A stretch of 63,194 nucleotides of DNA, counting the filler, from Craspedostauros australis (lineage: Eukaryota): the NCBI GenBank assembly GCA_030167865.1. It is 12 parts of 12 records of this genome, joined end to end, with 100 filler letters (N's around TTAATTAATTAA, not from the genome) between each part and the next. Parts side by side here need not be neighbours in the genome. Positions count along the whole stretch, not along the records: positions 16,019 to 26,040 come from JALAGF010006600.1; 11 more parts are not named here. One strand, given 5' to 3'. A model generated the notes under the pieces. The model was not told the DNA's origin, searched no databases, and was given only the letters and a program-made list of their open reading frames with translations. The position numbers and the translations under genes were made by a program. This document shows positions 15,533-51,600 of this stretch, one piece after another; position 1 is the first letter of the stretch; every line of letters begins with the position of its first letter.

Positions 15533-16863
15533 TCAGTTGTGCATCAGATTGATTCGTGACTCAAACAACTACAGTCACAACGGCGGTCATTGGACACCAA
15601 TAGACGATCTCGTTAAATATTGTACTTAACGACACGACATTTACTGGTCATTTTCAGCGAATGCAACGACACAGATTGTGGAGGTAAGACTAATTCGATT
15701 AAACAGCCTCGATTCATCTCTCTGGTCAAATGAGTCAAACGACGCACGTTTCAATGGGTTTGCCAGGTGTTGCTGTTGATGACGTGGTTGCGAGCGTGCA
15801 GCACTCGGGAAGGGAGTTTTGGGAATAGCAGGAACAGGGTTTACCGCAGCTTCCAACTTAACCCTTTACCGTTAATGACAGTCCCAACTCATGTCCCACA
15901 GCAAACTTGTCCGAGCGGNNNNNNNNNNNNNNNNNNNNNNNNNNNNNNNNNNNNNNNNNNNNTTAATTAATTAANNNNNNNNNNNNNNNNNNNNNNNNNN
16001 NNNNNNNNNNNNNNNNNNAGACTGGCTGAGATGGAATGTCATTGTGGGACGTCATTCACGAGTGATTGAGGTTGGCCTTTTAGAATTGCGCTGGGCCCAA
16101 TTACTTTCCATTTTTTGGAGCGAAATCAATTAATTGAAAACGCGTTTCCATTATCCATTTTATTTTACATTATCGGGACTGGCTTTCAATTAATGGAAAA
16201 GCGAAATCCATTTTCCATTGTGCTTTCCATTTTTTGGTATGGAGAGGCGTTGCGCGGGACTCGATAGCTTGAACAACAAACATCAATATGTTATGAGTAT
16301 GCCTGTGTACATGTCATTGACATTTAAATGAGATCAATTATTTAACCTATCATTCCCAACGTACTTTTTACAATGATGGCCTTCGAAGAGGAGAACGAAG
16401 CGAAAAATTGAAGGAGAAGAGCGATGAGGTCGAATTAGTCGAATGCCGTCGAGGTTGATGCATTTGCCGAGTGTCCCAGAAGGATCCAATCCACACGAAC
16501 CAGAAGGGTGCGATCAAGAGAAGGTTCCGCCCACACGAATCAGAGGGGCGCGATCATGAGGAGACAAACACAGGCAACCACACAGAGAGAGAGAGAGAGG
16601 GACGCGATCAAGAGGAGAGGATACATGCAAACAAGACCACAACACAACAACACAACCCCATACTCGAGCACCTCAACAACAGACACCGAATTGCCACTCA
16701 TATTCATCACACAGTGCATGATACTCATACTGATGCAAGCCATTGAAGACACACAATCGACATCTCTGCCATAGGTCGCTCAGACTACACACCTCCTCGA
16801 CAGGCAATCCAACGCCAATCGTCCAACGTCAATCGTCCAGCAACCATCGACCATCCCCTCAAC

Positions 16864-19800
16864 ATGCCGAATGTTACGAACGAACAACTGTTTGATGCTG
16901 CCTGGGAAGGTACCTTGTCGGTGTTGAAGAAATGGAAGAAGCAGAACAAGAAGAGCAAGAAAAAACGGGTTGATGCCAACAAGGTTATAGACTGGTTTGG
17001 TCGCACTGTCCTTCATGAGGCATGCATACACGGCCAGCTGGAGTGTATCAGGTACCTCATCAAATCATGTGGAGCTGACATCAACTGCGAAGACAACGCT
17101 GGCTCCACTCCCCTTCATTACGCATGCCACAACGGCCAGCTGAAGTGTGTGAAGTACCTCATCGAATCATGTGAGGCAAACATCAACTGCAAAGACAATG
17201 CTGGCTCCACTTCCCTTCATTACGCATGCATGCGTGGTCAGCTGGAGTGTGCGGAGTACCTCATCAAATCATGTGAGGCGAACATCAACTGCGAAGACAA
17301 CAATGGAAACACTCCCCTTCATGTGGCATGCATAAACGGCCAGCTCAAGTGTGTGGAGTACCTCATCGAATCATGTGAGGCGAACACCAACTGCAAAATC
17401 TACGATGGTTTCACTCCCCTTCATTGGGCATGCCGCAACGATGACCTGAAGTGTGTGAAACACCTCATCATATCATGTGGGGCGACCATCAACGGCAAAG
17501 ACACAATTGGAAACACTCCCTTTCATGTGGCATGCATACATGGCCACCTGGAGTGTGTGAAGTACCTCATCAAATCATGTGAGGCTAACATCAACTGCCA
17601 AGACAACAATGGAAACACTCCCCTTCATCGGGCATGCATGCGTGGTCAGCTGGAGTGTGCGGAGTACCTCATCGAATCATGTGAGGCGAACATCGACTGC
17701 CAAAACAACAATGGAAGCACTCCCCTTCATTACGCATGCCACAACGGCCACCTGGAGTGTATCAAGTACCTCATCGAATCATGTGAGGGCAACATCAACT
17801 GCAAAGACAAAGCTGGAAACACTCCCCTTCATCGGGCATGCATGCGTGGTCAGCTGGAGTGTGCGAAGTACCTCATCGAATCATGTGAGGCAAACATCAA
17901 CTGCAAAGACAATGCTGGCTCCACTTCCCTTCATCGGGCATGCCGCAACGGCCACCTGGAGTGTATCAAGTACCTCATCGAATCATGTGAGGCGAACATC
18001 AACTGCAAAGACAACAATGGAAACACTCCCCTTCATGTGGCATGCATAAACGGCCAGCTCAAGTGTGTGGAGTACCTCATCGAATCATGTGAGGCGAACA
18101 CCAACTGCAAAATCTACGATGGTTTCACTCCCCTTCATTGGGCATGCCGCAACGATGACCTGAAGTGTGTGAAACACCTCATCATATCATGTGGGGCGAC
18201 CATCAACGGCAAAGACACAATTGGAAACACTCCCTTTCATGTGGCATGCATACATGGCCACCTGGAGTGTGTGGAGTACCTCATCGAATCATGTGAGGCT
18301 AACATCAACTGCCAAGACAACAATGGAAACACTCCTCTTCATGTGGCATGCCGCAATGGCCACCTGGAGTGTGCGGAATACCTCATCGAATCATGTGAGG
18401 GCAACATTAACTGCCAAAACAACTTTGGTTCCACTCCCCTTCATCGGGCATGCCACAACGGCCACCTGGAGTGTATCAAGTACCTCATCGAATCATGTGA
18501 GGGCAACATCAACTGCAAAGACAACAATGGAAACACTCCCCTTCATCGGGCATGCTACAACGGCCACCTGGAGTGTGCGAAGTACCTCATCGAATCATGT
18601 GAGGCAAACATCAACTGCAAAGACAACAATGGAAACACTCCCCTTCATCGGGCATGCCGCAACGGCCACCTGGAGTGTGTGAAGTACCTCATCGAATCAT
18701 GTGAGGGGACCATCAACTGCAAAGACAACAATGGAAACGCTCCCCTTCATTACGCATGCCACAACGGCCACCTGGAGTGTGTGAAGTATGTCATCGAATC
18801 ATGTGAGGGCAACATCAACTGCAAAGACAATGATGGCAACACTCCCCTTCATCGGGCATGCTTGAATGGCCAGCTGGAGTGTGCGAAGTACCTCATCGAA
18901 TCATGTGAGGCGAACATCGACTGCAAAAGCATCTTTGGTTCCACTCCCCTTCATCACGCATGCCGCAACGGCAAGCTGGAGTGTGTGAAGTACCTCATCG
19001 AATCAGCCCATGCCGATCCCGACATTCAAAACAACGGCAACAAAACCCCCCTCGATTTGATCGATGCAGACCTTGACACTGGAATCAAGAGATTGATCAT
19101 GAAGCGTCGCATTCACCACAACCCACAACTGCAGCAACGCTTGCAACAAAACGAGCAAAAGAATAAACAACCACAAGAACATTTGAGACCGCATTTGAAG
19201 CAGAAGAAGAAAGGGAATCAACATTCACAAGAACAGTTGGGACAGCAGTTGAAGCAAGAGAATGAACAACTACAAGAGCAGTTGAGACAGCAGTTGAAGC
19301 GGAAGAAGCAAGAGAATGAACACAAACACAGTAGCCACAAGAGGACCACCATCAGCATCGGAAAAGACCGGCTCAGATCCTTTCATACCGAGAACAGGCC
19401 AGACACAATCTTCTTGTGTGGACAGGGCGACGACCAACAACCAATCAAGGCAAACGCTGAAGTCCTCATGATCTCCGTCCCATCCATTGAGACACTGATC
19501 AGCTCTGGAATCCAACATCAGCACACGAATGATGGTACCAAAGACGGCACGCCCCCCATGCAAGTAACTATCCCTCTTCCCAACCTTCAAGCAAAACACA
19601 TCCGATACATCCTCCAATGCATCTACACAGGCGAGATATCCTTTGATGACAGTGCTTGTGACAACGCTGCTGCTCACGTTGGCGCTCGTGCTGACGCTCA
19701 CCACGATGCAGATGCCCTTCACCAGTCAACTCCCATCCTCACTGGACAGGATGATCTGCAACAGCTGATCCTTGTGGCCGACCTGTTCGGTTTCTGGCGA

Positions 19801-20223
19801 CTCAAGCTTGTTCTTGAAGCAGAGTTGGCCCGCAAGCATCTCACAGAGGACACCATGATAGATGTGCTGATATTCGCCCATCAACACAACTGCGTGGTGT
19901 TGAAGGATGCAGCAATGAGAGTGGCAGCTGAAAATGAGAAAGATTTGTTCACTCATCCAGATTTCAGCAAGCTGATTCTACAACCCCAACTGATGAGAGA
20001 CATTCATGTCCTCCGCAGTGGGGGAGCAGAGAGTGATGGTACTGATGATGAGTACAGCCAGATGTCCATGGTGAAGCTGTACAAGGTTATAGATGAGGAT
20101 GAGGGTACAGTACAAGTGGATTCATACATGGATCGGGCAACATTGGTGGACTTCGTCCGCTCTATGAGTACCAAATCATCCAAAGTGAATGAGACGGACG
20201 GCGCTGCTGAAGAAGCGGAGTGA
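16864..20223 (+). CDS. Ankyrin-repeat (20 x 34 aa), Gln-rich coiled coil, BTB/POZ-BACK protein, 1119 aa; probable Cullin-3 substrate adaptor
   Basis: Intact ORF with G(N/S)TPLHxACxxGxLxCxxYLIxSC repeats. The C-terminus has a BTB/BACK pattern (ILQCIYTG, LILVADLFG..LK, VLIFAHQHNCVVLKDAA). Confidence 0.95.
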   Translation: MPNVTNEQLFDAAWEGTLSVLKKWKKQNKKSKKKRVDANKVIDWFGRTVLHEACIHGQLECIRYLIKSCGADINCEDNAGSTPLHYACHNGQLKCVKYLIESCEANINCKDNAGSTSLHYACMRGQLECAEYLIKSCEANINCEDNNGNTPLHVACINGQLKCVEYLIESCEANTNCKIYDGFTPLHWACRNDDLKCVKHLIISCGATINGKDTIGNTPFHVACIHGHLECVKYLIKSCEANINCQDNNGNTPLHRACMRGQLECAEYLIESCEANIDCQNNNGSTPLHYACHNGHLECIKYLIESCEGNINCKDKAGNTPLHRACMRGQLECAKYLIESCEANINCKDNAGSTSLHRACRNGHLECIKYLIESCEANINCKDNNGNTPLHVACINGQLKCVEYLIESCEANTNCKIYDGFTPLHWACRNDDLKCVKHLIISCGATINGKDTIGNTPFHVACIHGHLECVEYLIESCEANINCQDNNGNTPLHVACRNGHLECAEYLIESCEGNINCQNNFGSTPLHRACHNGHLECIKYLIESCEGNINCKDNNGNTPLHRACYNGHLECAKYLIESCEANINCKDNNGNTPLHRACRNGHLECVKYLIESCEGTINCKDNNGNAPLHYACHNGHLECVKYVIESCEGNINCKDNDGNTPLHRACLNGQLECAKYLIESCEANIDCKSIFGSTPLHHACRNGKLECVKYLIESAHADPDIQNNGNKTPLDLIDADLDTGIKRLIMKRRIHHNPQLQQRLQQNEQKNKQPQEHLRPHLKQKKKGNQHSQEQLGQQLKQENEQLQEQLRQQLKRKKQENEHKHSSHKRTTISIGKDRLRSFHTENRPDTIFLCGQGDDQQPIKANAEVLMISVPSIETLISSGIQHQHTNDGTKDGTPPMQVTIPLPNLQAKHIRYILQCIYTGEISFDDSACDNAAAHVGARADAHHDADALHQSTPILTGQDDLQQLILVADLFGFWRLKLVLEAELARKHLTEDTMIDVLIFAHQHNCVVLKDAAMRVAAENEKDLFTHPDFSKLILQPQLMRDIHVLRSGGAESDGTDDEYSQMSMVKLYKVIDEDEGTVQVDSYMDRATLVDFVRSMSTKSSKVNETDGAAEEAE
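16999..19038 (+). repeat. Coding tandem array of 20 x 102-bp ankyrin units
   Basis: Exact 102-bp period without indels; units 4-6 (17305-17610) are nearly identical to units 11-13 (18019-18324). Confidence 0.97.
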
Positions 20224-20526
20224 AGTACCATGCCATATTATGCCATAACAGAAGTCTTCGAGAAGTAAACGCATGACAGAATTGAGATGATGAAAAGAGG
20301 ACTCGAGTCAGTTGTCGGAGGGAGAGTATTCACAATCAGACTGCGAATGGTAATTACATATTCTATTGAGTAGCGTTATGTATTCTACACCACAAAAAGA
20401 AACGGCCACAGCGGACAGTTGTGACCTGCACAACCAGACAAGATCGTTTCGCTCCCATTATGACGGTTGGTGATCACACGCTTGCTGAGCGACTCATTCA
20501 ACTTCAATCCGTTGCACCATCCACCT

Positions 20527-22327
20527 TCACATGGGTGGATGTCCACGTGCCTCTTCCAGTTCTTGCTTCGCCTTTGCCAGCTGCGTCTTGAGATCTAGTT
20601 GCCGAACGCGAATATCTTGACAGATCCGCTCGAGCTTCGCCACCCAGAGCTTGTGCTCAAGAATTTTAATCTTCTTTGTCTTCCGCTTGGGCTGAGACGA
20701 TGACCTGTCGTGTTGTGGATTGGTGTTGGTGCTGTCGGTGCTGTTGATGCTGTTGGAACCACGAGAATGAGGACGCGGACGATGATCTGGAAGAGAAGGA
20801 GCGCGGCGAGTTCAACAGCGCTGATATCATTGGATGATGCGACTTCGTCCGCAACAGCAATATCGTCAGCGATATCATCATTGGTAGTACTGTGGCTGAG
20901 GGCGGATCCTGTCTCATTGCTGGTTGACCGGGTTCTCCTCTTCCGCTTCTTTGATCGGACGCAGATCCTCGTATGGCGATACCCGAGATGTTTCTGTTCC
21001 TTTTCATCGTCTCCGCGGTCACGATCGATAGCGCCATCGTTCCCGTCGCTACCGTTGTTGCCGTCACTTTCGTATAAGGACTCGTTGCCGTCATCATTTG
21101 GTGGAATGGGAGTGCTCCCGTCATCTCGGTCTTTGTCATCGTCGCTCCCGTCGCCGCTCTCATCTTCGGTTTCGTCTTCTCTCTCCTCGTCACTGTCGTC
21201 GGAGCATTGGTCGTCGTGACAGCGGGGCGCACTTGTGGGGAACTCCATGCCCGTCTTTGCGGAGGTGGGTAAAGGCCTCAGTGATGGTCGCGGGCTGGAT
21301 TCGGGAGAGATAGTGGCTTGTGACGATCTCTCCGCAAGCTGGGGAGCGTCCTTCAGCACTTTCCAACAAGCCGCGAGTATCTCGACGCTGAGAGAGCGGT
21401 TTTCGCCCTCCGTCTTGTGTGACTGAGTTGGGACAGACTAGCTCCGGGACTGACTCGGGACTTGACTGTCCATTCCGCGTACACGGTACTCGGTACCCAA
21501 GACCGATACTATGATGAAAGGCTACCACACACACGATGTGTAGTTGAACTGCAATCCTTGCGTTGCTCGCCCTCCAGCTCATGCACCCCTGCCACCTATC
21601 CACCTCGTCACCCTGCCGAACATGCATCTGTCTTGAAGCATATCCATGTGAATGGATCAGTTACTGCTCTATGGGTGATGATACTGGAAGACTGTATGTG
21701 TGCAGGATCACCACGGCATGTTGCTGCGCAACAAAGAACGGCTGAAGTACGACAGCATGAACCCCACCTTTTTACTCGATCGTCCTATCAATAGTAAGCT
21801 TAACACATAAAACAAGCAATCAGAAACAATCTTCACAGCTTACTTCCAAGTTTACTACAGTTACACCATCGTCTGATACAGCTTTGCTCTCAACATCAAA
21901 CGGTGCCAAAGCCGGTTGAAGGGCAGATCATCCTCCTGACAACGTGCAAAAGACACGGTATACTAACTGACTGGTACCAATTTGCAATCCATCGCACTTC
22001 GGCTTCTTCCGACATGTGCGGAGTCGATGGGTGATGTTCTCGAAGTTGGAGGACAGGGCGCCGGATTCTGTTGAAGAAGGCCCCGAGACTGTATTGATTT
22101 GAGTGTAGGGATATGTGGACATTAGATGCTGCTTCATCATTGTTGGTGTCGCCTCCGCTTGCGAGCTTTCCATCCAATTCTTGGTTGTATTGGTTGATGC
22201 TCTGGTTGAACATCTTCAAGATGAGAGGCCAACGTCGTTCCCCACGCTTGAGTGGTTTCTTATTTACTTCCATAAAGGCGACGCAAAGAAACCGCGCTTT
22301 CGTTGGAGTCCAGCCAAGAGGCGGCAT
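20527..22327 (-). pseudogene. Myb/trihelix(NAM-associated-like) paralogue 1, interrupted by a 543-bp insertion and with a 3' frameshift
   Basis: MPPLGWTPTKARFLCVAF..WIANWYQS | HKTEG..ACWKVLKDAPQ; the terminal coiled coil (LWVAKLER..AKQELEEARG) is in another frame. Confidence 0.8.
21426..21968 (+). mobile_element. 543-bp insertion, probable solo LTR (family D), AGTT..AACT termini, 5-bp TSD GACTG
   Basis: GACTG at 21421-21425 and 21969-21973; precise removal makes paralogue 1 collinear with paralogues 2 and 3 (23 aa from W to CW in all three). Confidence 0.8.
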
Positions 22328-22929
22328 CGTGAAGGAGTGGATTTGTACTGTTTGAGTGTCTCCTTTGATGCTATGCGTTGTTCTATGATCGACGATGGCG
22401 CTGGCTCTTGTTTCGTGGGTGCAGTTGCGAGCGATGAAGACGAAGCAGAAGAGAGGAAGTTTGAACGCCAGTCTTCTGAAAAGGTCAAGTTGGAAGATCA
22501 ACGCAGCGATTGGTGTGCGATGCCTCTCTGTTGCTTCTTCTGCTTCTGTTGCTGTGTCCGTTATGATCGACGATGGAAGTCAAGTATCGATCCTGATGTG
22601 ACTTTCTGCCGATGTGCGTGGTACGTCTCATCGATGGAAATTTGCATTTGTGGAGAGGGAGGTATCTGCGCCGACTTCCGCAAACTCGACAAGCATTCAC
22701 GAAACATCATGCGCTAGCTAGTGCACGATGATATCCAGAGGTCTCAACAGGAAAGAGATGGTCGCATGTCCATGCAAACTGTGATCTGTTCCATTATTCC
22801 CTTCGGAATGTCCACCCACCTGAAATTGGCACCACCAATCGGATCCTGCATACACATGCATTCTCCAATTTCCCCATTGCTCCATCTCTCGATCCATCCA
22901 CGCATGTGAAAGTTCGACACCTAATGACT

Positions 22930-24201
22930 TCAAGCCGAGCGATTGCGATGTGCCTCCTCCATTTCTTTCTTCGCCTCAGCAACCTGAAGCTTCAGATTGA
23001 GTTCCTGCAGGCGCAGATCGTGATAGTTGCGCTTAAGCTTGGTAAGCCGGAGTTCCTCGCGAATCGTGTCCATCTCCTCGCTGCCTTGGAGCGCCTTGGG
23101 TGGTGTGCTTCTTGCGGAGTCTCGGTCTTCTGTTCGCGTGGCTTGCGCTGTTTCTGAACGCACCTGCGGCGTGCCGTCTGTGTTGTCACGACGGTGTCCG
23201 CGATGCTGGCGACGACGACGATACCTGACTGTTTTGGCAACGCCATTGCCGTCTCCGGCTGCGTCGCCGTTTTCCACATGGGCGCTATCATCCGTGTTGC
23301 CGTCCTCCGCATCGTTATTGAGGACGACAAGCGTGCTCCTGTCAGCATCTACGGATACGCCACGATGCTTGCGTTTGCGCGATGGGGTATACCCAGTCGC
23401 AGTCGCAGGCTGTTGGTCATTGGATCCTCGCATCTGGATGGCGCTGTCGTTGTCGTTGTCGCTGCTGCTCTCCGTGTTCTCGTAGCTGGTGACAGTAGCA
23501 GGCGCGTACTCGTTGTCGTCGTCGTCGTCATCCGGATTGTATTGATCGTCCCCGCTCGTTCTGACGGAATTGTCTCCGTCTTCGCTTGCATGATCGCCGT
23601 CAGTCTCACCATGAGGGGATGAGCCTTGATGGTCGCAACGGTTTCGAGCGCGGACTGATGCCGCGACTGATTTGCGTGCGAGGAGGCGAAAAGGTCGAAG
23701 TGTGAGTTGTGGATAGGACTGAGCAAAGGCAGGTGAGGAAGCATCTGCAATTTGCGGCGCGTCCTTCAGGAGTCTCCAGCACTCCACGAAGGCGTGGATG
23801 TTGAGGCGAGAGTGTCTGGATCTTTTGTGCCACGATTCGCGCCAATCTGCGATCCATTGGAATTCAGCTTCCTGCGAAGTGTGAGGTGTTGGCGGAAGAT
23901 GCTTTCGAAGTTGCAGAGTGGAATGCCGGACGGTGCCGAAGATGCGTCTGAGACTATCTGCAGAAACCGTGCATGCGAGGTCATCGCAATCATCGCCGAA
24001 GTCGCTGTTGTTTCTGTCGGCGTTTCCTCTGTTCGCTCTCTCTATTGCCATCCGTTCGTTGTACTGCGCGATGCGGCGCTTGAAATTCTCAAAAATGAGA
24101 GACCAAGTTCCGCTTTTGCATATGCCTGGTCCCTTCTTGATTTCCAGGTAGGCGAGGCAAAGCATCCTCGCTTTCGCCGGAGTCCAGGAAGGTTGCGTCA
24201 T
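22930..24201 (-). CDS. Myb/trihelix(NAM-associated-like) paralogue 2 with acidic region, NLS-like motif and C-terminal coiled coil
   Basis: MTQPSWTPAKARMLCLAY..GTWSLI..ECWRLLKDAPQ..PSRKRK..LRLTKLKRNYHDLRLQEL; start chosen by paralogue alignment. Confidence 0.85.
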   Translation of the reverse strand: MTQPSWTPAKARMLCLAYLEIKKGPGICKSGTWSLIFENFKRRIAQYNERMAIERANRGNADRNNSDFGDDCDDLACTVSADSLRRIFGTVRHSTLQLRKHLPPTPHTSQEAEFQWIADWRESWHKRSRHSRLNIHAFVECWRLLKDAPQIADASSPAFAQSYPQLTLRPFRLLARKSVAASVRARNRCDHQGSSPHGETDGDHASEDGDNSVRTSGDDQYNPDDDDDDNEYAPATVTSYENTESSSDNDNDSAIQMRGSNDQQPATATGYTPSRKRKHRGVSVDADRSTLVVLNNDAEDGNTDDSAHVENGDAAGDGNGVAKTVRYRRRRQHRGHRRDNTDGTPQVRSETAQATRTEDRDSARSTPPKALQGSEEMDTIREELRLTKLKRNYHDLRLQELNLKLQVAEAKKEMEEAHRNRSA

Positions 24202-24778
24202 TTTAGAGAAGAAGTGAGAATGTGCTGTGTGAGTATTGGCGGTGACGATATTCCATGGACTGCCCTTGGACTCTTCGCTCAAGCTTTGGTGCAGTGTCTG
24301 CTGTTGTGTTGGATTTGGTGACGCTGGATGGTGTTGTTGTGTGCCTGGCCTCCTGGTTGGAGTTGATGGGCGACTTTGTGGGGAGGGGATGCGTGGATCT
24401 TCTGGTGATGCCAAAAGATACGGTTGCACTCGATTGAGTCAATCGCAGTGATTTGGATGGAGGTGGCTTTCTCGATGAGAACCTCTCTCTGGTCAGAGAG
24501 GGCTGGTGTGGCGGAACCACAAACGAGACCGACAATACCATTCATCTGTGCAACAGATGCTCTCTCATTCCATCAACGAACCCAAACGTTGCATGCATCT
24601 CATCGCTTGGCTCGGCACAGCGAGTGATAACTTCATTCATCTAATATTTGCAAGAGAGGTCAGGGGCTTTATCTGAACGCTGTGCGAGTTGAGGATAGCG
24701 TGTGGCGCTGGTCTGTATACGCCGTGACTTCATTCCTTCATTTGTTCATGCATATGCAACGATCGACATCTATATCCT

Positions 24779-26032
24779 TCAAATCGTTCGATCACCACGA
24801 GCTTCTTCCACTTCTTTCTTCGCCCTCTCGACCTGGAGCTTGAGGATGAGTTCTTGAATGCGCAGTTCGTGGTAGTTGCGCTCAAGTTTAGCTACCCGGA
24901 GCTGTTCGCGGAGCAACTTGGTATGCTTGCGGTCATGCAACGCTTGAGGCAACGTGATCGTTGCAGTTTCCATTGGCGTTGTCCTTTTTGTTGGCTTTAG
25001 GCGCCTGAGTGGATAGGCGTTGCCATTCATGTCGTTGTGGAGGTGTTGATACCGACGACGTGTGCGCTTTGGTCTTGGATCGTCCCTGATTTCGTCGGCG
25101 CTCTCCACGTTGATATCATCGTCTGTGTTGCTGTCCATGTCATCGCTGTCGACGACGGCGCGCGTGTTGGAATGACATGTGCCGGGATCTGCAGATACGC
25201 GACGACGCTTGCGCTTCCGCGATGGGGCGCGAACAGTCGCACGCCGTCGGTCTATGAATTGCCGAGTGGGATTTCCGCTGCTGTATACGGTGGGCCTCGC
25301 GTTGCCGCCGTCGTCGTCGCGACTCGTGATTTTGTTGGGTCTGTTGGGGGCTATAGACGCATCCTCCTCCTCCTCTTCTTCATCTTCGTCATCGTCACCG
25401 GTATTACCTGCGTCGTCATCTTCGTTGCTATCATCGCTATCAAGTTCATGATCTGCGTGTTGACTGTCGCGACGGCCGATGGCACAGGCAGATGTTTTGG
25501 TACATTTGCGCGCGATGAGGCGAACTACCCGATGCGTTGGCTGTGGATTGCATCTGGAGGCAGCTGAAGAATCATCTGCAATTTGCGGAGCGTCTTTCAA
25601 GATCCTCCAGCACTCCAACAGTAAGTTGCTGTGCAAACCCACGCTCGCGCCTCTGGCTGCGTATGATTGGTGCCAACGGTCGACCCACTGAGCTTCTTGC
25701 TTTCTGGATTTGTGAGGGTTCGGCGGACGCACTTTTCGGAGATCGAGGATGGTGCACCGGATCTTGCTGAATATCCTTCGATACCGCGCGGTGTCGTGAA
25801 CGCATGAGATCTTCTTGATATCGCCTGCTGATGCCGCAGAGTTTTTGCGTGCGCGTGCACCCTTTGCATGCTTCCTTGCGACTCTCCTGTTGTGTGCCTG
25901 GATGGCTTTCTTCATGTTCCGTGAAATGAGGGGCCAGGTTCCTTTTTCGCACCTCCCTGGTCCTTTGACCACCTTCAAGAATTCAAGGCACAGCATCCGC
26001 GCTTCCTCGGCAGTCCAGAAAGTACGCCGCAT
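24779..26032 (-). CDS. Myb/trihelix(NAM-associated-like) paralogue 3, 417 aa
   Basis: WTAEEARMLCLEF..GTWPLI..ECWRILKDAPQ..PSRKRK..LRVAKLERNYHELRIQEL. Confidence 0.85.
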   Translation of the reverse strand: MRRTFWTAEEARMLCLEFLKVVKGPGRCEKGTWPLISRNMKKAIQAHNRRVARKHAKGARARKNSAASAGDIKKISCVHDTARYRRIFSKIRCTILDLRKVRPPNPHKSRKQEAQWVDRWHQSYAARGASVGLHSNLLLECWRILKDAPQIADDSSAASRCNPQPTHRVVRLIARKCTKTSACAIGRRDSQHADHELDSDDSNEDDDAGNTGDDDEDEEEEEEDASIAPNRPNKITSRDDDGGNARPTVYSSGNPTRQFIDRRRATVRAPSRKRKRRRVSADPGTCHSNTRAVVDSDDMDSNTDDDINVESADEIRDDPRPKRTRRRYQHLHNDMNGNAYPLRRLKPTKRTTPMETATITLPQALHDRKHTKLLREQLRVAKLERNYHELRIQELILKLQVERAKKEVEEARGDRTI

Positions 26033-26854
26033 TGTGTACGNNNNNNNNNNNNNNNNNNNNNNNNNNNNNNNNNNNNNNNNNNNNTTAATTAATTAANNNN
26101 NNNNNNNNNNNNNNNNNNNNNNNNNNNNNNNNNNNNNNNNCCGTGAGAATCAGTATCGATCTGAACCGGGTGGGACGAAGACATCAAATAAAAAGTCTGT
26201 CCAACCACTCGTGAACTTGACGATGTCACTCAACATGGAACATGCGACGTTGCCATGCACTTAACGACAAGAAGAATCACGTCATCACAGTTTCGACTCG
26301 AACTAACGCCCGTAACGTCGAAATGAGCACGTACTACTCCGCTCGCACGAGTTTGCAGCACCTTGCCGGCTCGCAGTTCGGTTGGTTGCCGTTCAGTGTT
26401 TTGGGAGCCGCGGCAATTTTGGAGAGACTCCTTCGCAATGACGTTCCCGGCAAGCCTGACAGGTTGTCAAGTTGCTGGACATGATGACGTGGGTTGAAAT
26501 GTCTGCGACCTCTGAACTCTCTTCGAGCTCCTCTGTGTATACCATGCATTGAGTACCTTAGTATGATACTACAAAATCGATGCGATACCATTCGTATAGA
26601 GCATGCGCCTAACCCGGCACACTCAGTATATCTTCGACAGTGAATCGGGTTCTCCACTAGTCTCCCGTGCGTGCCCACTGTGACGAAGTAGACAAAAATA
26701 CATAGGCACATTCATGTACACAGCGCACTGCTCATTGCGCACTCCTACCTTCGTCAGACTCAACTGAAAGGCAATGCGTCACTTTGCACCATACTAGCAT
26801 CATCCATGGCATCCATGTTGGTACCTGCTTCCTGCTTGTGTCATCCTCGTGGTC

Positions 26855-45913: not shown

Positions 45914-47918
45914 ATGGCATCCGCAGCGCAACGGAAGTCGAAAACAGATCCGACCGAAACGGATTCCAAGGAAAGCGCCCAAGAGAAAGCCAAGCGGCTG
46001 CTTGATGGCGCCACGGACGTGCTGGAGGCAGTGGACCAGGCGCAAATCTTCCAGCAGAGAGACACGCGTGACTTCCCTACCTTCCAGCGGTCAGAGGTTC
46101 GGTTGGCGGAGCGCAAGCTGGGGAGCGGAGGATTTGGCATTGTGTACACTGTGGAGGAATTCACGTTGGCGTCTGAAAGCTCAACCAGCGTGGACCAGTC
46201 GAATGATGATGAATCACCGTCACAAGACGCCGCAGAGAATCCTCCGCAAGGCACAGATGATGCCGAAGCAAAGCACTCCGATCCAGTCGATTACAAACTG
46301 CTGCAAGACCTGGGCGAGGTTCTGGGTCTGGATCGAAGGCGCCACGAAGCGGATGGTGGTGACGAACATGGGGATGCAGAGATGCATTACGACGTCGAGT
46401 CGGCCCGAGGAATTATGAAAGAACGATGCATCCGTATGGGGCAGGCGCGGTATGCCCTGAAGCACCTGCGGGATGATTTGGATGAGGTGGACCGCGTTCG
46501 TGGCATGATCGATTTGGCAATCGAGATTTCGTACTTGAAGGTCTTGTGGCATCCCAACATCAGTAAGTGGATGCACGCGGAACCGATAGTCCACTCGATT
46601 GCAAACACAGGCGTTGCACGGACCGTTCGTGGGATCCAAAGAGGTCGGCAAAACCAATGTTTGGATGTTGTGATCGCCGCTTCTCAGCTTTGACTCACCC
46701 GTCCCAATCGTTTTTTTCTTCTTCTTCTCCCTCCGCACACCCCCGGCACAACATGCGCGCTTCAGTCAAAATGAGAGGCGTGTCAGATACTGTGCGCGTA
46801 TCTCCGGATACATTCCTCATCCTCGACCGGTTATTCGGAACCCTGGACGACAAGTTAGACGACTGGCGTCAAATGTACGAAGCCAACAAGGGCGGGTCTT
46901 GCATCTGCGGCAGACAGGGTAGGAACGAACCTGCTTTGCAGCAGCTGATGAGAGATCGACTGCTCGTTGCATACGATCTGACCCAGGCCTTCAGGTACTT
47001 GCATTCGCACAGGTAGGCTTAGAAGTAGAGTTGGCACACTATTCATCATTGCATTGTGCAGTGTGGAGTGCACAGCCTTTGCCACGACCGATCGATGTTG
47101 CTGCCAACCAAACTCATCAAAAACTCACACTCTCACGAACCCATGCATCCATGCATTAATACTTCAACGGCTGTCATGTCTGCGTCTCGTCGTGTCTCGA
47201 CCATCCGCTCTGCTCCATACCAAACGCATGCGATGCTCCATTCGAAAATCCACGATTGTACCACACGGTGCGTACTATTATTGTTTTTCTTTTCGAACCA
47301 ACCCACCGCCGACAAAACGATCCATCTTCTCTCCGGGTACATATGTGCAGACTGCTCTATCGCGACATCAAACCGGAGAACTTTGGATTTGATGTGCGTG
47401 GCGATGTGAAGGTATTTGACTTTGGCCTTGCACGCTCGATGGAGGAGAAGGATGCGGTCAAAGGCTACGGCTTCCAGCTGACCAAACTGACAGGAAGCGT
47501 ACCGTACATGGCGCCGGAAGTGGCACTGGGCAAGCCGTACGCCCATGAAGCTGATGTCTTCTCGCTCTCCATCGTTCTTTGGGAGATGCTGAGCTTGAAG
47601 TGGGCGTTCAATGGTTATTACCTGAAGGAGTATGTTAAGTTCGTAGTGAGGGGGAATGAGCGGCCCCCGGTCAACGCGAGCTGGCCCGCAATCATCCGCA
47701 CGATTATCGCGGAAGCATGGGATGTGGAGCCACAAAAGCGCCCAGGGATGAAACGCTTCGGAACGTTGCTGCGAGGAGTCTTGGAGAACATCTCGCCAGA
47801 CGACGAAGTCGTCAATCGCACCCAGCATATGCTGAATCGTTCCAGGCGATCGTTCCGATTCCGTGCCAGCAGCTTGCGGTCACCTCGCCACACGATCCAT
47901 CGTGGCGATGAGCAGTGA
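45914..47918 (+). CDS. Protein kinase (TKL-like); introns 46563-46765 and 47013-47350
   Basis: LGSGGFGIV, YALK, spliced HPNIIKMRG and HRLLYRDIKPEN, DFG, YMAPE, DVFS; canonical GT-AG sites. Confidence 0.93.
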
Positions 47919-48675: not shown

Positions 48676-51600
48676 TTACTTGTTCCGCGGTCCCGTGTAA
48701 TTCTTCAAGTACTTGACCACGGACTCCTCACCTCTCGTCTCCCATTCCTTGCGGTTGGCTTTTGCGTAGTTGAGGTATTCCGCTGATGACACCCCGAACA
48801 CGCCGCATTCTTGCAGTTTGCGTGCCAATGGAATGATGTAAAAGTCGAAGAAGCCCATCTCGCCTTGGTACCAGCCCACCGACGGATCCGTGTCGGAACG
48901 TCCCATCTGATAAGCCTTGTACATTTCATGGAACAACTTCTCGTTCCATTTGACGTAGATGTGCCAGTGCTGCATGGTGTGGGCGACGTCAGATGCCTGG
49001 ATCAAGTGCTCGATGACGATGGTGGCCATCCGGTTGGCAACTTGCTGGTGGCCAGACTTAGCGTTCGCATCACCTGACAGCTTTCTGCGCTGCTGGAAGG
49101 CTGTATCCCAGCGCTCCTTCCGAAGCACGCCCAGATCCTTGTCCATAATGTCCGTGGCCAGCACCATGTTCACCATGAGCTTGCGGAACCGTTCGAGCTC
49201 TTCCTTGGTCTGGTAGATGCAAGCCCGGAAGTCTGCGTACCTTGGCTCCATCAGAAGATCCCAGGCGAGGTCCAGAGAGTTCTGCTCTGCGATGCTCTTG
49301 TTCTTGTACATCTCAGCCAGAGGTGTCTTCTCCTTGGCAAGCTGCGTGTTGGGCACGCCCTGATGATCCACATCGTGGATAAGCGCTGCGAAAACACAAG
49401 CGAATTGCGTGATGGGGTCGGAGGTGATGCCGAAGGTGTACTTGTGCAGATCTTTCGCGGTGTCCGTCGTGTAACGCATGGCCTTGTAGTCGATGGAATC
49501 TGCGGTCACGATTCGCGACAGCAACTTGATCGTCGACTGCACGACGTGGCTGGCGTGCGAAAAGCCGTGGAACGAGTTGTCCTGGTACATGTTGCAAATG
49601 GTTCGGACGAAGTCCTCCACCTGCGAGAGCACTTGCGGGCTGATCTTGACCGATTGCGGGTCTATTTTTTGTTCCATCGCATGGTTTGGGAGCTGGATGA
49701 CCTCCGTGAGCTCGTCGAAGGATGACTCGCCGGGCTGCCGGAAATTCCCTGCCTCGCCTCCTTTGATAACTTTGCGGGAACCAGACTTCGGATCTCGCAT
49801 GCTGACTATCTTGCGAAGCAACGTATGGAGCACATCAACGTTCCATTGGATCTCAAGTTCGGCATCGATCCGATATGCCTTGGTCTTGCGAGTTCTGGCG
49901 GTTGGTGTTGTTGTTGCTGCTGCTGCCAATTGATTTGATCCCTTGGGTGACGGGCGGGCTTTCGAGATTGATTCAGAGGAATCGAATTGGCTGTTGCTAT
50001 TGGTCTCACTGGAGCTGCTCTCGATGCTTCCTGCGATGCTGTCATCATCGCTGTGCTGGTTTTCCATTCCGTTGGTCGACTCGAGTTGCGCTTCTTTTTT
50101 CTGTGCATCGTACATCTCACGCTGCCCTCTGACCACCCAGTACGTTTGCAGCGAGCCTTTGCCCTTCGCCATGACCTGGTCCTCTCGCTCCATAATCCAC
50201 AACGCCTTGCCAGCCTCGATGAGCTCGTCCGCAGTCTCTTGCGAGACTTGGATGCGATTTGGAATCCCGGTCTGCTCCATCCGGGCGGCCGTGTTCACCG
50301 TATCACCGAACAGCTGGAAGCGCGACTTGTCGCCGCGAAGCACCCCGGCGGTGACAGGTCCGGAGTGCAACCCGAGTCTCATCTTCAGCTCTGTCGTGTC
50401 CGGGCCCAAGGTCACGGCGAGTTTGCGGACGATCACCTCGATCCTGGCCACGCACGCAATGGCGAAACGCGTCATCACGACGGCATGGTCCGGCATAGAT
50501 TCGGGCAGGCCCGTCACTGCGACGTAGCAATCGCCGACCGTTTCGACCTTGAAGACCTGCAGGCGGCGGGCGATCTTATCAAAGCAGGCAAAGAATGCTT
50601 CCAAAAGTTCAAAGACCTCAGCTGGCTGTCGGACGCTTGACCACGCTGAAGGTGGTCCATAGAATGAACGCGAATACGTAATTAGAGCGTATGTACAAGG
50701 TGCAAGGTAGACGCAGTAATGTTTGAGATTCAATCAATGGTGAAGATACCAATATCCAGCATGTGCGGATTGTATGCCGAGAAGTCAAATGGTAGGGGTG
50801 CAGTGGGGGTGAGTGCGGTGATCGATGGTTGATGGTGTTCAGAGTGCCAAAAGCAGTGCATCGTAGTACCATCCCAGACGTATGTAGTACAATTCAACAA
50901 GCAACAAATATTTCGTTCTGAAATTCATGAGGAAGTTCTCCCTCGGCATCCACAACAAAATCAACGTCGCACAGAGTCGAGCTTCGTACCTGTGAAACCA
51001 ACCACGTCGGCAAACAAGACTGTGACGTGCGGGAACAGATCTGCAATCGGCTTGGACTTTTTACGAATGATGCGTTGCGAAAGCCGTGCGCGGGGACGTG
51101 GTCTTGCTTGCTTCGGGGAGTGGCCCGCCTCCCAATTCGTCGTATCCACGGAATCACAGTCTGTGCCGAACTCCCTGGATGGAGTCGGAGCTGTTCCAAC
51201 GAACGAATTCTTCTTGGACTTGCCCCGTTTGGACTTCTTGCTGCGTTTCTTTTTACGATCTCCGTCGTTGAGCAGCCGATCGCGCACGTTCTGCGGGAAC
51301 AGGGAGCTGACGATGGTGGCAGATCGTGCTGCCACCTTCAAGATCTTCGACTGCCTGTTCTCCACGAGATAGTCGTACAGCACGAAAGCCAAAGCTGTGA
51401 CCACGAAGGTGATGCTGACTGCGATGGCATTGACGAATGGCTGGTTCGTGTGATACTCATCAAAAAAAGCCTGCGTCGGGTATGCGTGAAACGTGTACCT
51501 GCACTGACTCAATTCGCTCATGCTCTCGAACGGTTGAGTCTCCAGGTACTTGTCCGTGTCCTTTCCGTCGATGTCGTCATGGTGATCGCCCACTCCCCAG

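Follow-up and report, generated by a model that had tools for sequence, protein, structure and literature searches.

Introduction

Does a diatom gene that encodes a long series of similar ankyrin (ANK) units produce a protein with a diversified binding surface, and what would such a surface recognise? The recognition of viruses, parasites and mates by diatoms is little known at the protein level, and the locus described here is a concrete, testable candidate for it. It lies in a window of 63,194 nucleotides, filler included, from the assembly of Craspedostauros australis (GCA_030167865.1). A reading of this DNA made from the sequence alone (the sequence-only reading) had described a natural DARPin-like array and proposed a diversifying module for the recognition of non-self or of a substrate, in analogy to the sensor domains of fungal NLRs. 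The locus is a natural binder scaffold with its variable residues where protein engineers put them, and the BTB-type domain attached to the array is of a kind whose normal role is to pass bound proteins on to a ubiquitin ligase. Since the ANK units differ mainly at the positions that grip a partner and are joined to a BTB adaptor domain, the product may be a fast-changing target-recognition protein.

Locus and protein architecture

The open reading frame (ORF) of C. australis encodes 1119 amino acids, runs uninterrupted from ATG to stop and is intronless according to the ORF listing and translation. The protein consists, in this order, of an N-cap, 20 ANK units, a C-cap, a Q/K-rich linker, BTB/BACK and a C-terminal tail (Table 1). 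A single-sequence AF2 model of residues 1-317 (mean pLDDT 67.4) places the helices of the N-cap at residues 6-28 and 38-55, followed by pairs of helices that recur every 34 residues and occupy unit positions 4-10 and 14-23. The N-terminus of the ORF can be aligned with the relatives P0321 and P0122 and its C-terminus with P0121; P0321 is a 114-residue transcript fragment carrying the N-cap, with 88% identity across the BLASTP-aligned stretch. The abundance of lysine near the N-terminus hints at a nuclear signal. The linker contains an internal 45/54-bp tandem repeat at 19160-19322, as detected by Tandem Repeats Finder (TRF).

Table 1. Features of the ANK-BTB gene (positions along the whole window)
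Feature	Position	Strand	Evidence
ORF, single	16864-20223	+	translation without stops; no N in 16019-26040
N-terminal helical cap, aa 1-45	16864-16998	+	AF2 helices; cap kept in P0321
Lysine-rich stretch of N-cap, aa 22-35	16927-16968	+	
Array, 20 ankyrin units of 102 bp / 34 aa	16999-19038	+	TRF, translation, Pfam
Higher-order duplication, units 4-10 to 11-17	17305-18732	+	identities at offset 714
C-terminal capping half-repeat, degenerate, aa 726-749	19039-19110	+	translation; relatives show same cap type
Gln/Lys-rich linker	19111-19350	+	TRF and translation
BTB/POZ domain, divergent, aa 842-994	19387-19845	+	Pfam, AF2, Foldseek
Low-confidence insertion in BTB, aa 930-961	19651-19746	+	AF2
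BACK/3-box-like helical hairpins, aa 998-1051	19855-20016	+	family profile, hhalign; Pfam sub-threshold
Two-helix C-terminal tail, conserved	20068-20193	+	common to ANK-BTB and MATH-BTB relatives

Common descent and growth of the array

The ankyrin units of the array descend from a recent common ancestor. TRF analysis has identified a repeat at 17010-19005 with a period of 102 bp, 19.6 copies, 81% matches, 0% indels and a score of 2337, and Pfam finds 20 Ank stretches (PF00023, E 3.3e-200) as well as Ank_2 (PF12796, E 1.7e-256) in the whole protein. The 20 units of 102 bp given by the sequence-only reading are all in frame, its residue lists are exact (E, Y, Y, V, W, V, R, Y, R, R, V, W, V, V, R, R, R, Y, R and H after LH, and likewise the dipeptides after AC and the turn tripeptides), and the DNA scaffold motifs that it quoted occur at fixed offsets within units. 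Its term "near-identical" is too strong: pairwise identity averages 80.7% at the nucleotide level (range 65-100%) and 68.0% at the amino acid level (70.5% for units 2-19), and 41 of 102 nucleotide columns are invariant across the 20 units, or 54 of 102 across units 2-19. CCCCTTCAT is present at a fixed offset in 14 of the 20 units and TACCTCATC in 17, both being absent elsewhere in the window, and a scaffold 22-mer occurs 15 times against 0 expected from 100 shuffles.

Codon choice goes with the position in the unit. Cysteine is encoded by TGC at position 9 (20/20), TGT at positions 16 (20/20) and 24 (19/19) and TGC at position 30 (17/17), leucine by CTT at position 5 (18/18), CTG at position 14 (18/20) and CTC at position 20 (19/19), glutamate by GAG at position 15 (15/15) and GAA at position 22 (15/15), and lysine by AAG at position 18 (11/13) and AAA at position 31 (13/13). 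Because one amino acid has different fixed codons at different unit positions, codon bias is ruled out as the cause of the low synonymous divergence. The sequence-only reading had counted the synonymous sites as part of an almost invariant scaffold; their position-specific conservation is real, but the pooled pS of 0.19-0.21, which comes mostly from codons 1, 11, 12, 18, 26 and 33, shows that they are not invariant overall. The array contains 76 cysteines in 680 residues, four per unit.

The array grew through multi-unit unequal exchange, visible as a duplication of seven units (714 bp), in which units 11-17 (18019-18732) form a second copy of units 4-10 (17305-18018). Identities per unit at this offset are 102, 102, 100, 85, 93, 91 and 94 of 102, and the longest identical run is 266 bp (17294-17559 = 18008-18273). 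Units 8 and 15 differ at 9 of 102 nucleotides, all within codons 1, 2, 7, 33 and 34, and the differences between units 9 and 16 are confined to codons 10-13 and 33-34. A PHI-type permutation test gives p 0.008, with 69% of the informative site pairs incompatible, and the turn cassette DNNGN and Arg at position 7 are each used in 7 of the 20 units. The sequence-only reading contains neither the 7-unit duplication nor the cassette swaps nor the BTB fusion.

Positions of variation and site tests

Variability is concentrated at unit positions 33, 34, 2, 7, 10 and 11, whose entropy ranks are 7, 2, 5, 3, 1 and 10 of 34, respectively (one-sided Mann-Whitney p 2.5e-4 for the excess). Alignments with DARPins map these positions onto library positions 2, 3, 5, 10, 13 and 14, which form one exposed surface randomised in an artificial ankyrin binder library, according to the available part of its description (PMC3308923). 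Thus, both the alignments and the entropy ranks bear out the proposed coincidence with engineered-binder positions. The further proposal that variation is focused on the binding surface is correct as to the enrichment at the six groove positions, but positions 13, 17, 18, 22, 31 and 32 vary as well. The differences between units are mostly short multi-nucleotide patches at codon 7, at codons 10-13 and at turn codons 32-34 plus 1-2. These variable patches correspond to helix 1 and the loop/turn, which make up the binding face of ankyrin domains.

Site tests have been carried out with our own FEL-type code on the 18 unique units, using an all-site tree and a scaffold-only tree; they compare, as do all our selection analyses, units within one gene copy, and are inflated by recombination among units, which is present here. 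With both trees, codon 7 shows a beta of 6.0-12.2 (two-rate p 0.002-0.014) and codon 34 a beta of 5.1-6.8 (two-rate p 0.00014-0.003). Codon 2 (two-rate p 0.03-0.05) and codon 10 are marginal, and these tests give no signal of beta > alpha at codons 11, 13, 17 and 33. At codon 7, the pooled pN amounts to 0.74, compared with about 0.2 for pS across the whole array. The array-wide omega is 0.77-0.78 by maximum likelihood and 0.82-0.86 by NG86. For the six positions that we take to be the original DARPin set, dN/dS computed for this class alone is 0.81-0.82, since pS at these positions is high too. Synonymous rates are raised at codons 1, 11, 26 and 33, which adjoin variable codons, suggesting that the variable patches may be older haplotypes that escape homogenisation rather than fast-evolving sites. 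The word "diversifying" therefore fits codons 7 and 34, and marginally codons 2 and 10, but neither codons 11, 13, 17 and 33 nor the array as a whole; likewise, the per-site dN/dS comparison that had been suggested as a check gives a nonsynonymous excess at codons 7 and 34 but an array-wide omega below 1.

The C-terminal domain and its family

The C-terminal domain resembles the BTB/BACK part of SPOP, with a putative BACK region. The Pfam BTB match (PF00651) is marginal, with 25.1 bits on residues 830-1119 and 20.7 bits on the whole protein at a cut-off of 20.5, and the BTB matches of relatives reach E 2.8e-8. For the C-terminal part, AF2 gives a model with a mean pLDDT of 82.2, in which residues 101-118 fall below 50. 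Its best Foldseek match is the SPOP BTB structure 4j8z (E 1.4e-8, TMt 0.83, rmsd 3.1), and among the 76 matches at E<=0.001, SPOP BTB/BACK is followed by KEAP1, KBTBD2, KLHL11 and NPR1. Consistently, the family profile matches SPOP BTB-BACK chains with E 1.2e-15 to 3.7e-14 and hhalign matches a SPOP-named protein with a probability of 98.1%, both alignments extending through the BACK region of SPOP. The Pfam models BACK (18.9 bits, cut-off 20.9) and BACK_BPM_SPOP (18.7 bits, cut-off 27.4) stay below threshold, and a single-sequence PDB search with the C-terminal part returns only a chance-level match (E 0.05).

In KLHL3, the Cul3-contacting phi-x-E motif is M83-S84-E85 in the alpha3/beta4 loop, as given in the available part of PMC3616122. 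When the motif is placed manually after the alpha3 helix, it reads Ile-Gln-His in the diatom protein, and in the alignment of relatives, with the same manual placement, the hydrophobic residue is kept and the Glu position varies. A homodimer prediction of the BTB/BACK part (score 0.10, mark 0.32) carries no weight either way. In the C-terminal tail, Y244 and R262 are invariant in the family alignment, and AF2 predicts helices at 240-249 and 262-281. The nearest Atlas cluster has SAP in 31% of its members; a SAP domain in the tail was considered and rejected, as Pfam finds none even at E<=10.

The protein belongs to a raphid-diatom family with either ANK or MATH ahead of the SPOP-like BTB. A search with the C-terminal domain yields 129 representatives at E<=1e-3, or 20 at E<=1e-10, and a Pfam scan of 20 of the 129 has revealed eight with ANK and BTB and eight with MATH, seven of the latter also having BTB. 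The named members are C. australis and Stauroneis constricta, the nearest named relatives, in agreement with the diatom affiliation assumed before. P0124 (535 residues) and P0253 (603 residues) are grouped in a single 90% cluster, and one has two ANK units more than the other. A whole-protein homology search among proteins of near length is dominated by generic ankyrin proteins (best identity 46%), and a search of proteins of 615-1959 residues with the C-terminal region yields no relatives, which proved to be shorter. The exact 1119-residue protein has no match in a collection of 15 billion proteins, and the exact scaffold 22-mer is found at 0 loci in metagenomes. Scans with the family profile give 73 pattern matches in metagenomes and scans of viral contigs give 85, with 0 confirmed in either, and so the viral contigs offer no sign of a giant-virus origin. 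In titles and abstract openings of the literature on diatom ankyrin-BTB proteins no report of such a family was found, and those on the C. australis genome, among the matches listed, contain nothing on it.

Proposed function and alternative explanations

We propose, with a probability of roughly 55%, that this intronless ANK-BTB gene encodes an adaptor of the BTB (probably Cul3) type, that its solenoid is the putative variable substrate-recognition arm and that the diversity of the groove is selected. The ANK array is plausibly a recognition module. The solenoid would work as the target-recognition arm in the way that MATH-BTB/SPOP adaptors do, the ANK groove would choose the substrate, and BTB/BACK would bring in a ligase of the cullin-3 type or, at the minimum, associate with itself. 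Selection would keep or promote diversity at groove positions, and unequal crossing-over together with patchy gene conversion would keep the scaffold uniform and shuffle the variable patches among units.

An array of this kind could also be an ordinary ankyrin scaffold for a fixed partner, expanded recently and under no continuing diversification, the groove differences being the usual repeat-specific contacts. This is unlikely, although it deserves serious weight: the overall omega is below 1, few variant states are present and they are re-used (DNNGN and Arg at position 7, 7/20 each), synonymous differences go together with the variable patches, and helix-2 positions 13, 17, 18 and 22 vary too. 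Such a scaffold is, however, at odds with codons 7 and 34, where the nonsynonymous rate exceeds the synonymous one 5-12 times, with the high pooled pN at codon 7 (0.74 versus a pS of about 0.2), with 7-unit blocks that have already diverged almost solely at the groove patches, and with unit numbers that differ among family members. A wholly or partly artefactual array, in which the assembly has collapsed, expanded or chimerised paralogous units, is very improbable. The 20 units cover 2040 bp without frameshift or stop and with 0% indels by TRF, no N occurs within 16019-26040, 220 of the 1084 placed contigs of sequencing run X1 are at least 99% alike, and an independent transcript fragment matches the N-terminus and the first two units. 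The suspicion of an artefact arises from the window being a gap-rich draft (2304 N in 69 runs), from the perfect 266-bp internal duplicate, which is hard for short reads, from single run-X1 contigs that join 16954 to 18330, 17440 to 18262 and 18147 to 18868, and from the 339 of 1084 placed contigs that fit two places; the contigs that make these joints, however, were built by de Bruijn assembly, where jumps inside repeats are to be expected. The RNA type of run X1 is only guessed and no expression claim rests on it, and runs X2 and X3 contain next to nothing of the ANK-BTB gene.

A sensor of non-self or immune cues comparable to the repeat domains of fungal NLRs is improbable as well. The ANK domains of Podospora NLRs have a similar pattern of conserved units, concave-face variable sites and reshuffling, as far as the available part of PMC4986451 describes them, and the diatom family is lineage-restricted and multi-copy. 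However, Pfam analysis of the whole protein shows no NACHT or NB-ARC, its matches being limited to Ank families, BTB, BACK and an overlapping DUF6602 below threshold. BTB/BACK is the sole partner domain, and a death-type effector is likewise absent. The same available text defines highly conserved repeats by at least 85% identity across at least 100 residues (PMC4986451), a level reached by 5.8% of the 102-residue block pairs, all at the 7-unit offset. Nothing ties the gene to infection or incompatibility, and in another raphid diatom, BTB/POZ families are reproduction-biased in expression, according to the available part of PMC7335047, which points to biology other than non-self. The fungal-NLR analogy and the term "non-self" are therefore not supported: NACHT/NB-ARC is absent, the partner is SPOP-like BTB/BACK, and identity falls short of 85%.

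Our preferred reading, a substrate-recognition arm of a BTB adaptor, can be extended to a whole repertoire, although this extension is doubtful. Raphid diatoms would have swapped MATH for long ANK solenoids in a lineage-specific family of SPOP-like BTB adaptors of E3 ligases, and reassortment of the groove would produce rapidly changing receptors for proteins of pathogens or mating partners. The shuffling of groove residues may proceed through unequal crossing-over and gene conversion over short patches, the pathogen targets may be proteins of viruses, oomycetes or chytrids, and the repertoire may be a ubiquitin-ligase counterpart of the repeat-shuffling of fungal NLRs. The ladder of four cysteines per unit could add redox or electrophile sensitivity, a property of the Cul3 adaptor KEAP1. 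If strains are polymorphic in unit number and groove, concerted evolution combined with diversification would reach a photosynthetic stramenopile from fungal NLRs, and the same repeat-receptor mode would extend from NOD-type receptors to ligase adaptors. If they are not, the locus still illustrates neatly how an ankyrin array has recently expanded within an ANK-BTB family specific to one lineage.

Comparison with known systems

The putative use of ankyrin repeats as the substrate-binding part of an E3 adaptor would be shared with FEM1, ASB and poxvirus ANK/F-box receptors, and FEM1C is among the PDB sequence matches of the diatom units, as NPR1 is among the fold matches of the C-terminal part. 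NPR1 and ABTB/BTBD11 are BTB+ANK proteins. All of these differ from the diatom protein in domain order and partner box, and to our knowledge none of these types has been described with a long, internally conserved, patch-shuffled array.

The ANK, TPR and WD repeats of fungal NLRs, as presented in the available part of Dyrka et al. 2014 (PMC4986451), resemble the diatom array in their 33-34-residue ANK units, internal conservation, variable or selected sites at inner helices and the hairpin/loop, and unit reshuffling. Unlike them, the diatom protein is without a NOD domain and is fused to BTB, and its internal amino acid identity is 68-70%, compared with the criterion of at least 85% in the same part of PMC4986451; 8% of the unit pairs reach 85%.

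The diatom units align to DARPin chains (5lec, E 4.8e-94). Typical DARPins have 2-3 units, whereas the diatom array has 20. The natural units are 34 residues long, with one extra residue after helix 2 that appears as an alignment gap, and differ from DARPins also in having four cysteines each and in varying at helix-2 positions. The six most informative natural variable positions are those numbered 2, 3, 5, 10, 13 and 14 in the artificial ankyrin library, as far as its available description goes (PMC3308923).

The MATH-BTB/SPOP adaptors of Cul3 have an N-terminal recognition domain followed by BTB and BACK/3-box, an order that the diatom protein shares with its putative recognition domain, its BTB and its BACK/3-box-like hairpins, and the C-terminal domains match by profile (E 1.2e-15), fold and hhalign. 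The putative recognition domain is a 20-unit ankyrin solenoid in the diatom protein rather than MATH, its BTB carries an insertion of about 30 low-confidence residues, and the Glu of the Cul3-contact motif is not kept, on manual placement of the motif. Expanded MATH-BTB families reportedly show adaptive evolution in the substrate-binding domain (said to have been described by Thomas in 2006). Among the relatives of the C-terminal domain that lack ANK, the closest are MATH-BTB proteins of diatoms, which have the same tail.

Gene Model and Architecture

The ankyrin array lies in a single open reading frame within 16019-26040, where no N letters occur, and relatives begin and finish at places matching its start and end. 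Pfam finds 20 ankyrin stretches (E 3.3e-200) in the whole protein, where its BTB match is marginal; in the C-terminal 290 residues only, BTB scores 25.1 bits (cut-off 20.5) and two BACK models fall slightly under their cut-offs. The protein combines an ankyrin array with a BTB domain, and the Gln/Lys-rich linker between the two, with its internal tandem repeat, is a possible coiled coil. The N-terminal cap contains a lysine-rich stretch that resembles a nuclear localisation signal; P0321 (a 114-residue C. australis transcript fragment) has it too, and more distant relatives lack it. Upstream of the start codon, at a distance of about 250-350 bp, stand three GCGATCA-type motif copies and a (GA)n run, and a 14-bp tandem repeat directly precedes the codon; all of these are possible elements of the promoter or leader.

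Elsewhere in the window, one frame joins a guanylate/adenylate cyclase catalytic domain (E 8e-39) to a cyclic-nucleotide phosphodiesterase (E 2e-29), and a protein kinase fragment stands next to it. The guanylate-cyclase/phosphodiesterase fusion is a typical diatom architecture. The N runs comprise 14 recurring pairs of exactly 44 N with 12 bases between, 50-N runs and single Ns; the pairs look like a masked or withheld recurring element, unlike ordinary assembly gaps.

Features of the gene and of the surrounding window
Feature	Position	Strand	Details
Short motif copies and (GA)n run	16505-16620		
Tandem repeat before ATG	16808-16839		14 bp
Single ORF	16864 (ATG) to 20221-20223 (stop)	+	1119 aa
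Lysine-rich stretch	16927-16968		aa 22-35
Ankyrin array	16999-19038	+	20 successive in-frame 102-bp units
Second open frame	17561-18049	+	162 aa
Second open frame	18173-18682	+	169 aa
Perfectly identical run	17294-17559 = 18008-18273		266 bp
Degenerate capping half-repeat	between array and BTB	+	
Gln/Lys-rich linker	19160-19322		periods 45 and 54 bp, 2.3-3.2 copies, 74-82% matches
Two-helix C-terminal tail	20068-20193		
Protein kinase fragment	47160-47915	+	
Cyclase/phosphodiesterase ORF	48679-50733	-	
Paired 44-N runs (examples)	10339-10382/10395-10438, 15919-15962/15975-16018, 26041-26084/26097-26140		

Common Descent and Rearrangement of the Units

Tandem Repeats Finder reports a period of 102 over 17010-19005 (19.6 copies, 81% matches, 0 indels, score 2337), and one 22-base piece of the unit is present 15 times across the window versus 0 times in 100 shuffles. 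The sequence-only reading described near-identical units. The in-frame 102-bp repetition is borne out and its per-unit residue lists are reproduced exactly, but near-identity is too strong a term, with mean pairwise identities of 80.7% for nucleotides (range 65-100%) and 68% for amino acids. The DNA motifs that it quoted each keep a constant offset; among them, CCCCTTCAT is present in 14 of 20 units and TACCTCATC in 17, and these two are absent from the rest of the window. Invariant nucleotide columns number 41 of 102 across all units and 54 of 102 across units 2-19. The second frame stays open through parts of the array because the repeat unit is free of stops, and it is not evidence for a further gene. 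Four cysteines per unit, at scaffold positions 9, 16, 24 and 30, amount to 76 in 680 residues (11%, versus 1.7-3.6% in nine family relatives) and may form a buried ladder along the solenoid.

The units share a recent common descent. Cysteine is written TGC at position 9 (20/20) and 30 (17/17) and TGT at 16 (20/20) and 24 (19/19); leucine is CTT at 5 (18/18), CTG at 14 (18/20) and CTC at 20 (19/19); glutamate is GAG at 15 (15/15) and GAA at 22 (15/15); and lysine is AAG at 18 (11/13) and AAA at 31 (13/13). Since codon choice for one amino acid is fixed separately at each position, the units are alike by descent, and codon bias is ruled out as the cause. Synonymous differences, when pooled, come to about 0.2 per site, well short of saturation, and they fall mainly in codons 1, 11, 12, 18, 26 and 33.

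Units 11-17 repeat units 4-10, with 102, 102, 100, 85, 93, 91 and 94 identical bases of 102 in successive pairs. This is a multi-unit duplication, indicating array growth through unequal exchange of seven units (714 bp), and the perfectly identical run indicates that part of the array was duplicated or converted very recently. Differences between paired units are patchwise, not scattered point changes. The nine base differences between units 8 and 15 all lie in codons 1, 2, 7, 33 and 34, including TAC to CGG, and units 9 and 16 differ in codons 10-13 and 33-34 alone, a linked synonymous change in Gly among them. Position 7 has also been reassorted against the dipeptide at 10-11, since His-Asn and Met-Arg each stand beside Tyr or Arg, and Arg-Asn beside Trp, Arg, Val or His; of the informative site pairs, 69% are incompatible, and p is 0.008 in a PHI-type permutation test. 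What emerges is a uniform scaffold whose units swap three small patches (codon 7, codons 10-13 and the turn).

Variation on the Presumed Binding Face

Shannon entropy is highest, in order, at positions 10, 34, 7, 13, 2, 17, 33, 32, 31 and 11. Alignment of the units to PDB DARPin (designed ankyrin repeat binder) chains sets the register; one additional residue after helix 2 accounts for the 34-residue length, and unit positions 33, 34, 2, 7, 10 and 11 correspond to positions 2, 3, 5, 10, 13 and 14 in DARPin register. An excerpt of a paper on an artificial ankyrin library states that exactly these six positions were randomised and calls them one exposed surface (PMC3308923). In the array they rank 7, 2, 5, 3, 1 and 10 of 34 in entropy (one-sided Mann-Whitney p 2.5e-4) and hold about 40% of total entropy in 18% of positions; 11 of the 21 replacement codon differences in the seven unit pairs fall on them. 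The original DARPin design set, which we take to be positions 2, 3, 5, 13, 14 and 33, gives p 6.7e-4. An AF2 single-sequence model of residues 1-317, with a mean pLDDT of only 67, makes unit positions 4-10 and 14-23 helical, which separates positions 7 and 10 by one turn of helix 1 and leaves positions 31-34 and 1-2 in the loop or turn. Variation is focused on helix 1 and the turn. The proposed concentration on DARPin-type binding positions is thus upheld as enrichment and not as exclusivity, since variation, mostly conservative, also occurs on or close to helix 2 at positions 13, 17, 18 and 22.

Pooled Nei-Gojobori dN/dS for the whole unit is 0.82-0.86. Among subsets, the 26 less variable codons give 0.47-0.57, and eight codons picked after data inspection give 1.43-1.44. 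The a priori DARPin set gives 0.81-0.82 because synonymous differences are high at those positions too. A custom fixed-effects site test was applied to the 18 unique units (GY-type model, F3x4 frequencies, branch lengths under one omega) on an all-site tree and on a scaffold tree without the six variable codons, and global omega was 0.77-0.78. Under the array-wide synonymous rate, beta is 5.8-11.9 at codon 7 and 5.1-6.6 at codon 34 (p 3e-5 to 2e-13). With a free site-specific synonymous rate, p is 0.002-0.014 at codon 7, 0.00014-0.003 at codon 34 and 0.03-0.05 at codon 2, and at codon 10 it depends on the tree (0.08 with all sites, 0.9 with the scaffold). Recombination is evident among the units and inflates site tests of both kinds. 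Nonsynonymous excess is present at two codons, 7 and 34. The idea that dN/dS exceeds 1 at the variable codons holds for these and more weakly for codon 2; it fails for the unit as a whole and for codons 11, 13, 17 and 33, where the site test on the 18 unique units found no such excess. Synonymous rates are raised at codons 1, 11, 26 and 33. Since synonymous differences accompany the variable patches, the patches may be older haplotypes that survived homogenisation, not rapid new change; under either view, diversity is retained at the patches while the scaffold is uniform.

The C-Terminal Domain and Its Family

An AF2 model on a 17-sequence alignment (mean pLDDT 82.2, pTM 0.78; model residues 101-118 form a disordered insertion) finds SPOP BTB structures as its top Foldseek matches (4j8z, E 1.4e-8, TMt 0.83), followed by KEAP1, KBTBD2-CUL3, KLHL11 BTB-BACK and NPR1. 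The family profile matches SPOP chains at E 1.2e-15, and hhalign gives 98.1% probability against an SPOP-named protein. The Cul3-contact motif of KLHL3 is M83-S84-E85 in the part of PMC3616122 consulted. Manual placement puts Ile-Gln-His there in this protein, with a third residue not conserved in relatives, so that fold and family, and not the motif, are the grounds for the putative Cul3 binding. The two-helix tail is conserved and common to ANK-BTB and MATH-BTB diatom relatives; a SAP domain is present in 31% of members of the nearest ESM-Atlas cluster, and Pfam found no SAP in the C-terminal part.

HMMER with residues 830-1119 against 1.84 billion representatives gives 129 proteins at E<=1e-3, 20 of them at E<=1e-10. 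Among 20 of the 129 searched with Pfam, eight have Ank and BTB and eight have MATH, seven of these also with BTB. The named close relatives all come from two raphid diatoms, Craspedostauros australis and Stauroneis constricta, and metazoan SPOP/SPOPL come next at E ~1e-8. Relatives have the 34-residue unit and the LH-x-AC signature in common, but just 3-7 units. P0321, from the C. australis transcriptome, covers the N-terminus and first two units at 88% identity, indicating a close paralogue or allele in transcript data. Two relatives in one 90% cluster, P0124 and P0253, are exactly two 34-residue units apart, and the shorter has a unit resembling a hybrid of two in the longer, much as unequal exchange would leave.

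Possible Function and Comparison with Known Systems

We put the probability at about 55% that the protein is an SPOP-kind BTB adaptor in which a long ankyrin solenoid replaces MATH as the substrate-binding arm. The BTB part would recruit cullin-3, the ankyrin groove would pick the substrate, and selection may favour diversity at the groove. An ordinary ankyrin scaffold with a fixed partner, seen shortly after expansion, is rather unlikely; the whole-unit dN/dS is compatible with it, and the nonsynonymous excess at codons 7 and 34 speaks against it. That the array is a misassembly is very improbable. The long identical run and three single-contig joints within the array (skipping 720, 821 and 1375 bases), found among contigs of sequencing run X1, could be read that way; the uninterrupted 20-unit frame and the match of P0321 to the N-terminus and first two units point to a genuine array. 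X1 places 1084 contigs on 16744-20285 (220 at least 99% alike, 346 at 95-99%, 518 at 90-95%), with many alternative letters in the array and also in the non-repetitive C-terminal part, as would be expected if the organism behind X1 had several related copies; 339 contigs fit two places, and such cross-placement and the de Bruijn nature of the contigs allow no firm inference on copy number, alleles or assembly.

A non-self sensor in the manner of fungal NLRs, which the sequence-only reading proposed beside substrate recognition, is distinctly unlikely. The array has a pattern like that of the highly conserved ANK repeats described in the consulted part of PMC4986451, but the class assignment falls on two defining features: the NOD domain is absent here, and identity stays below 85% over 100 residues except at the seven-unit offset. 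By analogy, reproduction offers an alternative biological setting to defence, as a portion of the Seminavis genome paper places BTB/POZ families among reproduction-biased, fast-diversifying genes (PMC7335047). Among the titles and abstract openings listed in literature searches, none deals with a diatom ANK-BTB family. As an SPOP-kind adaptor, the protein would work in the mode of the MATH-BTB adaptors, from which it differs in its recognition fold, ankyrin.
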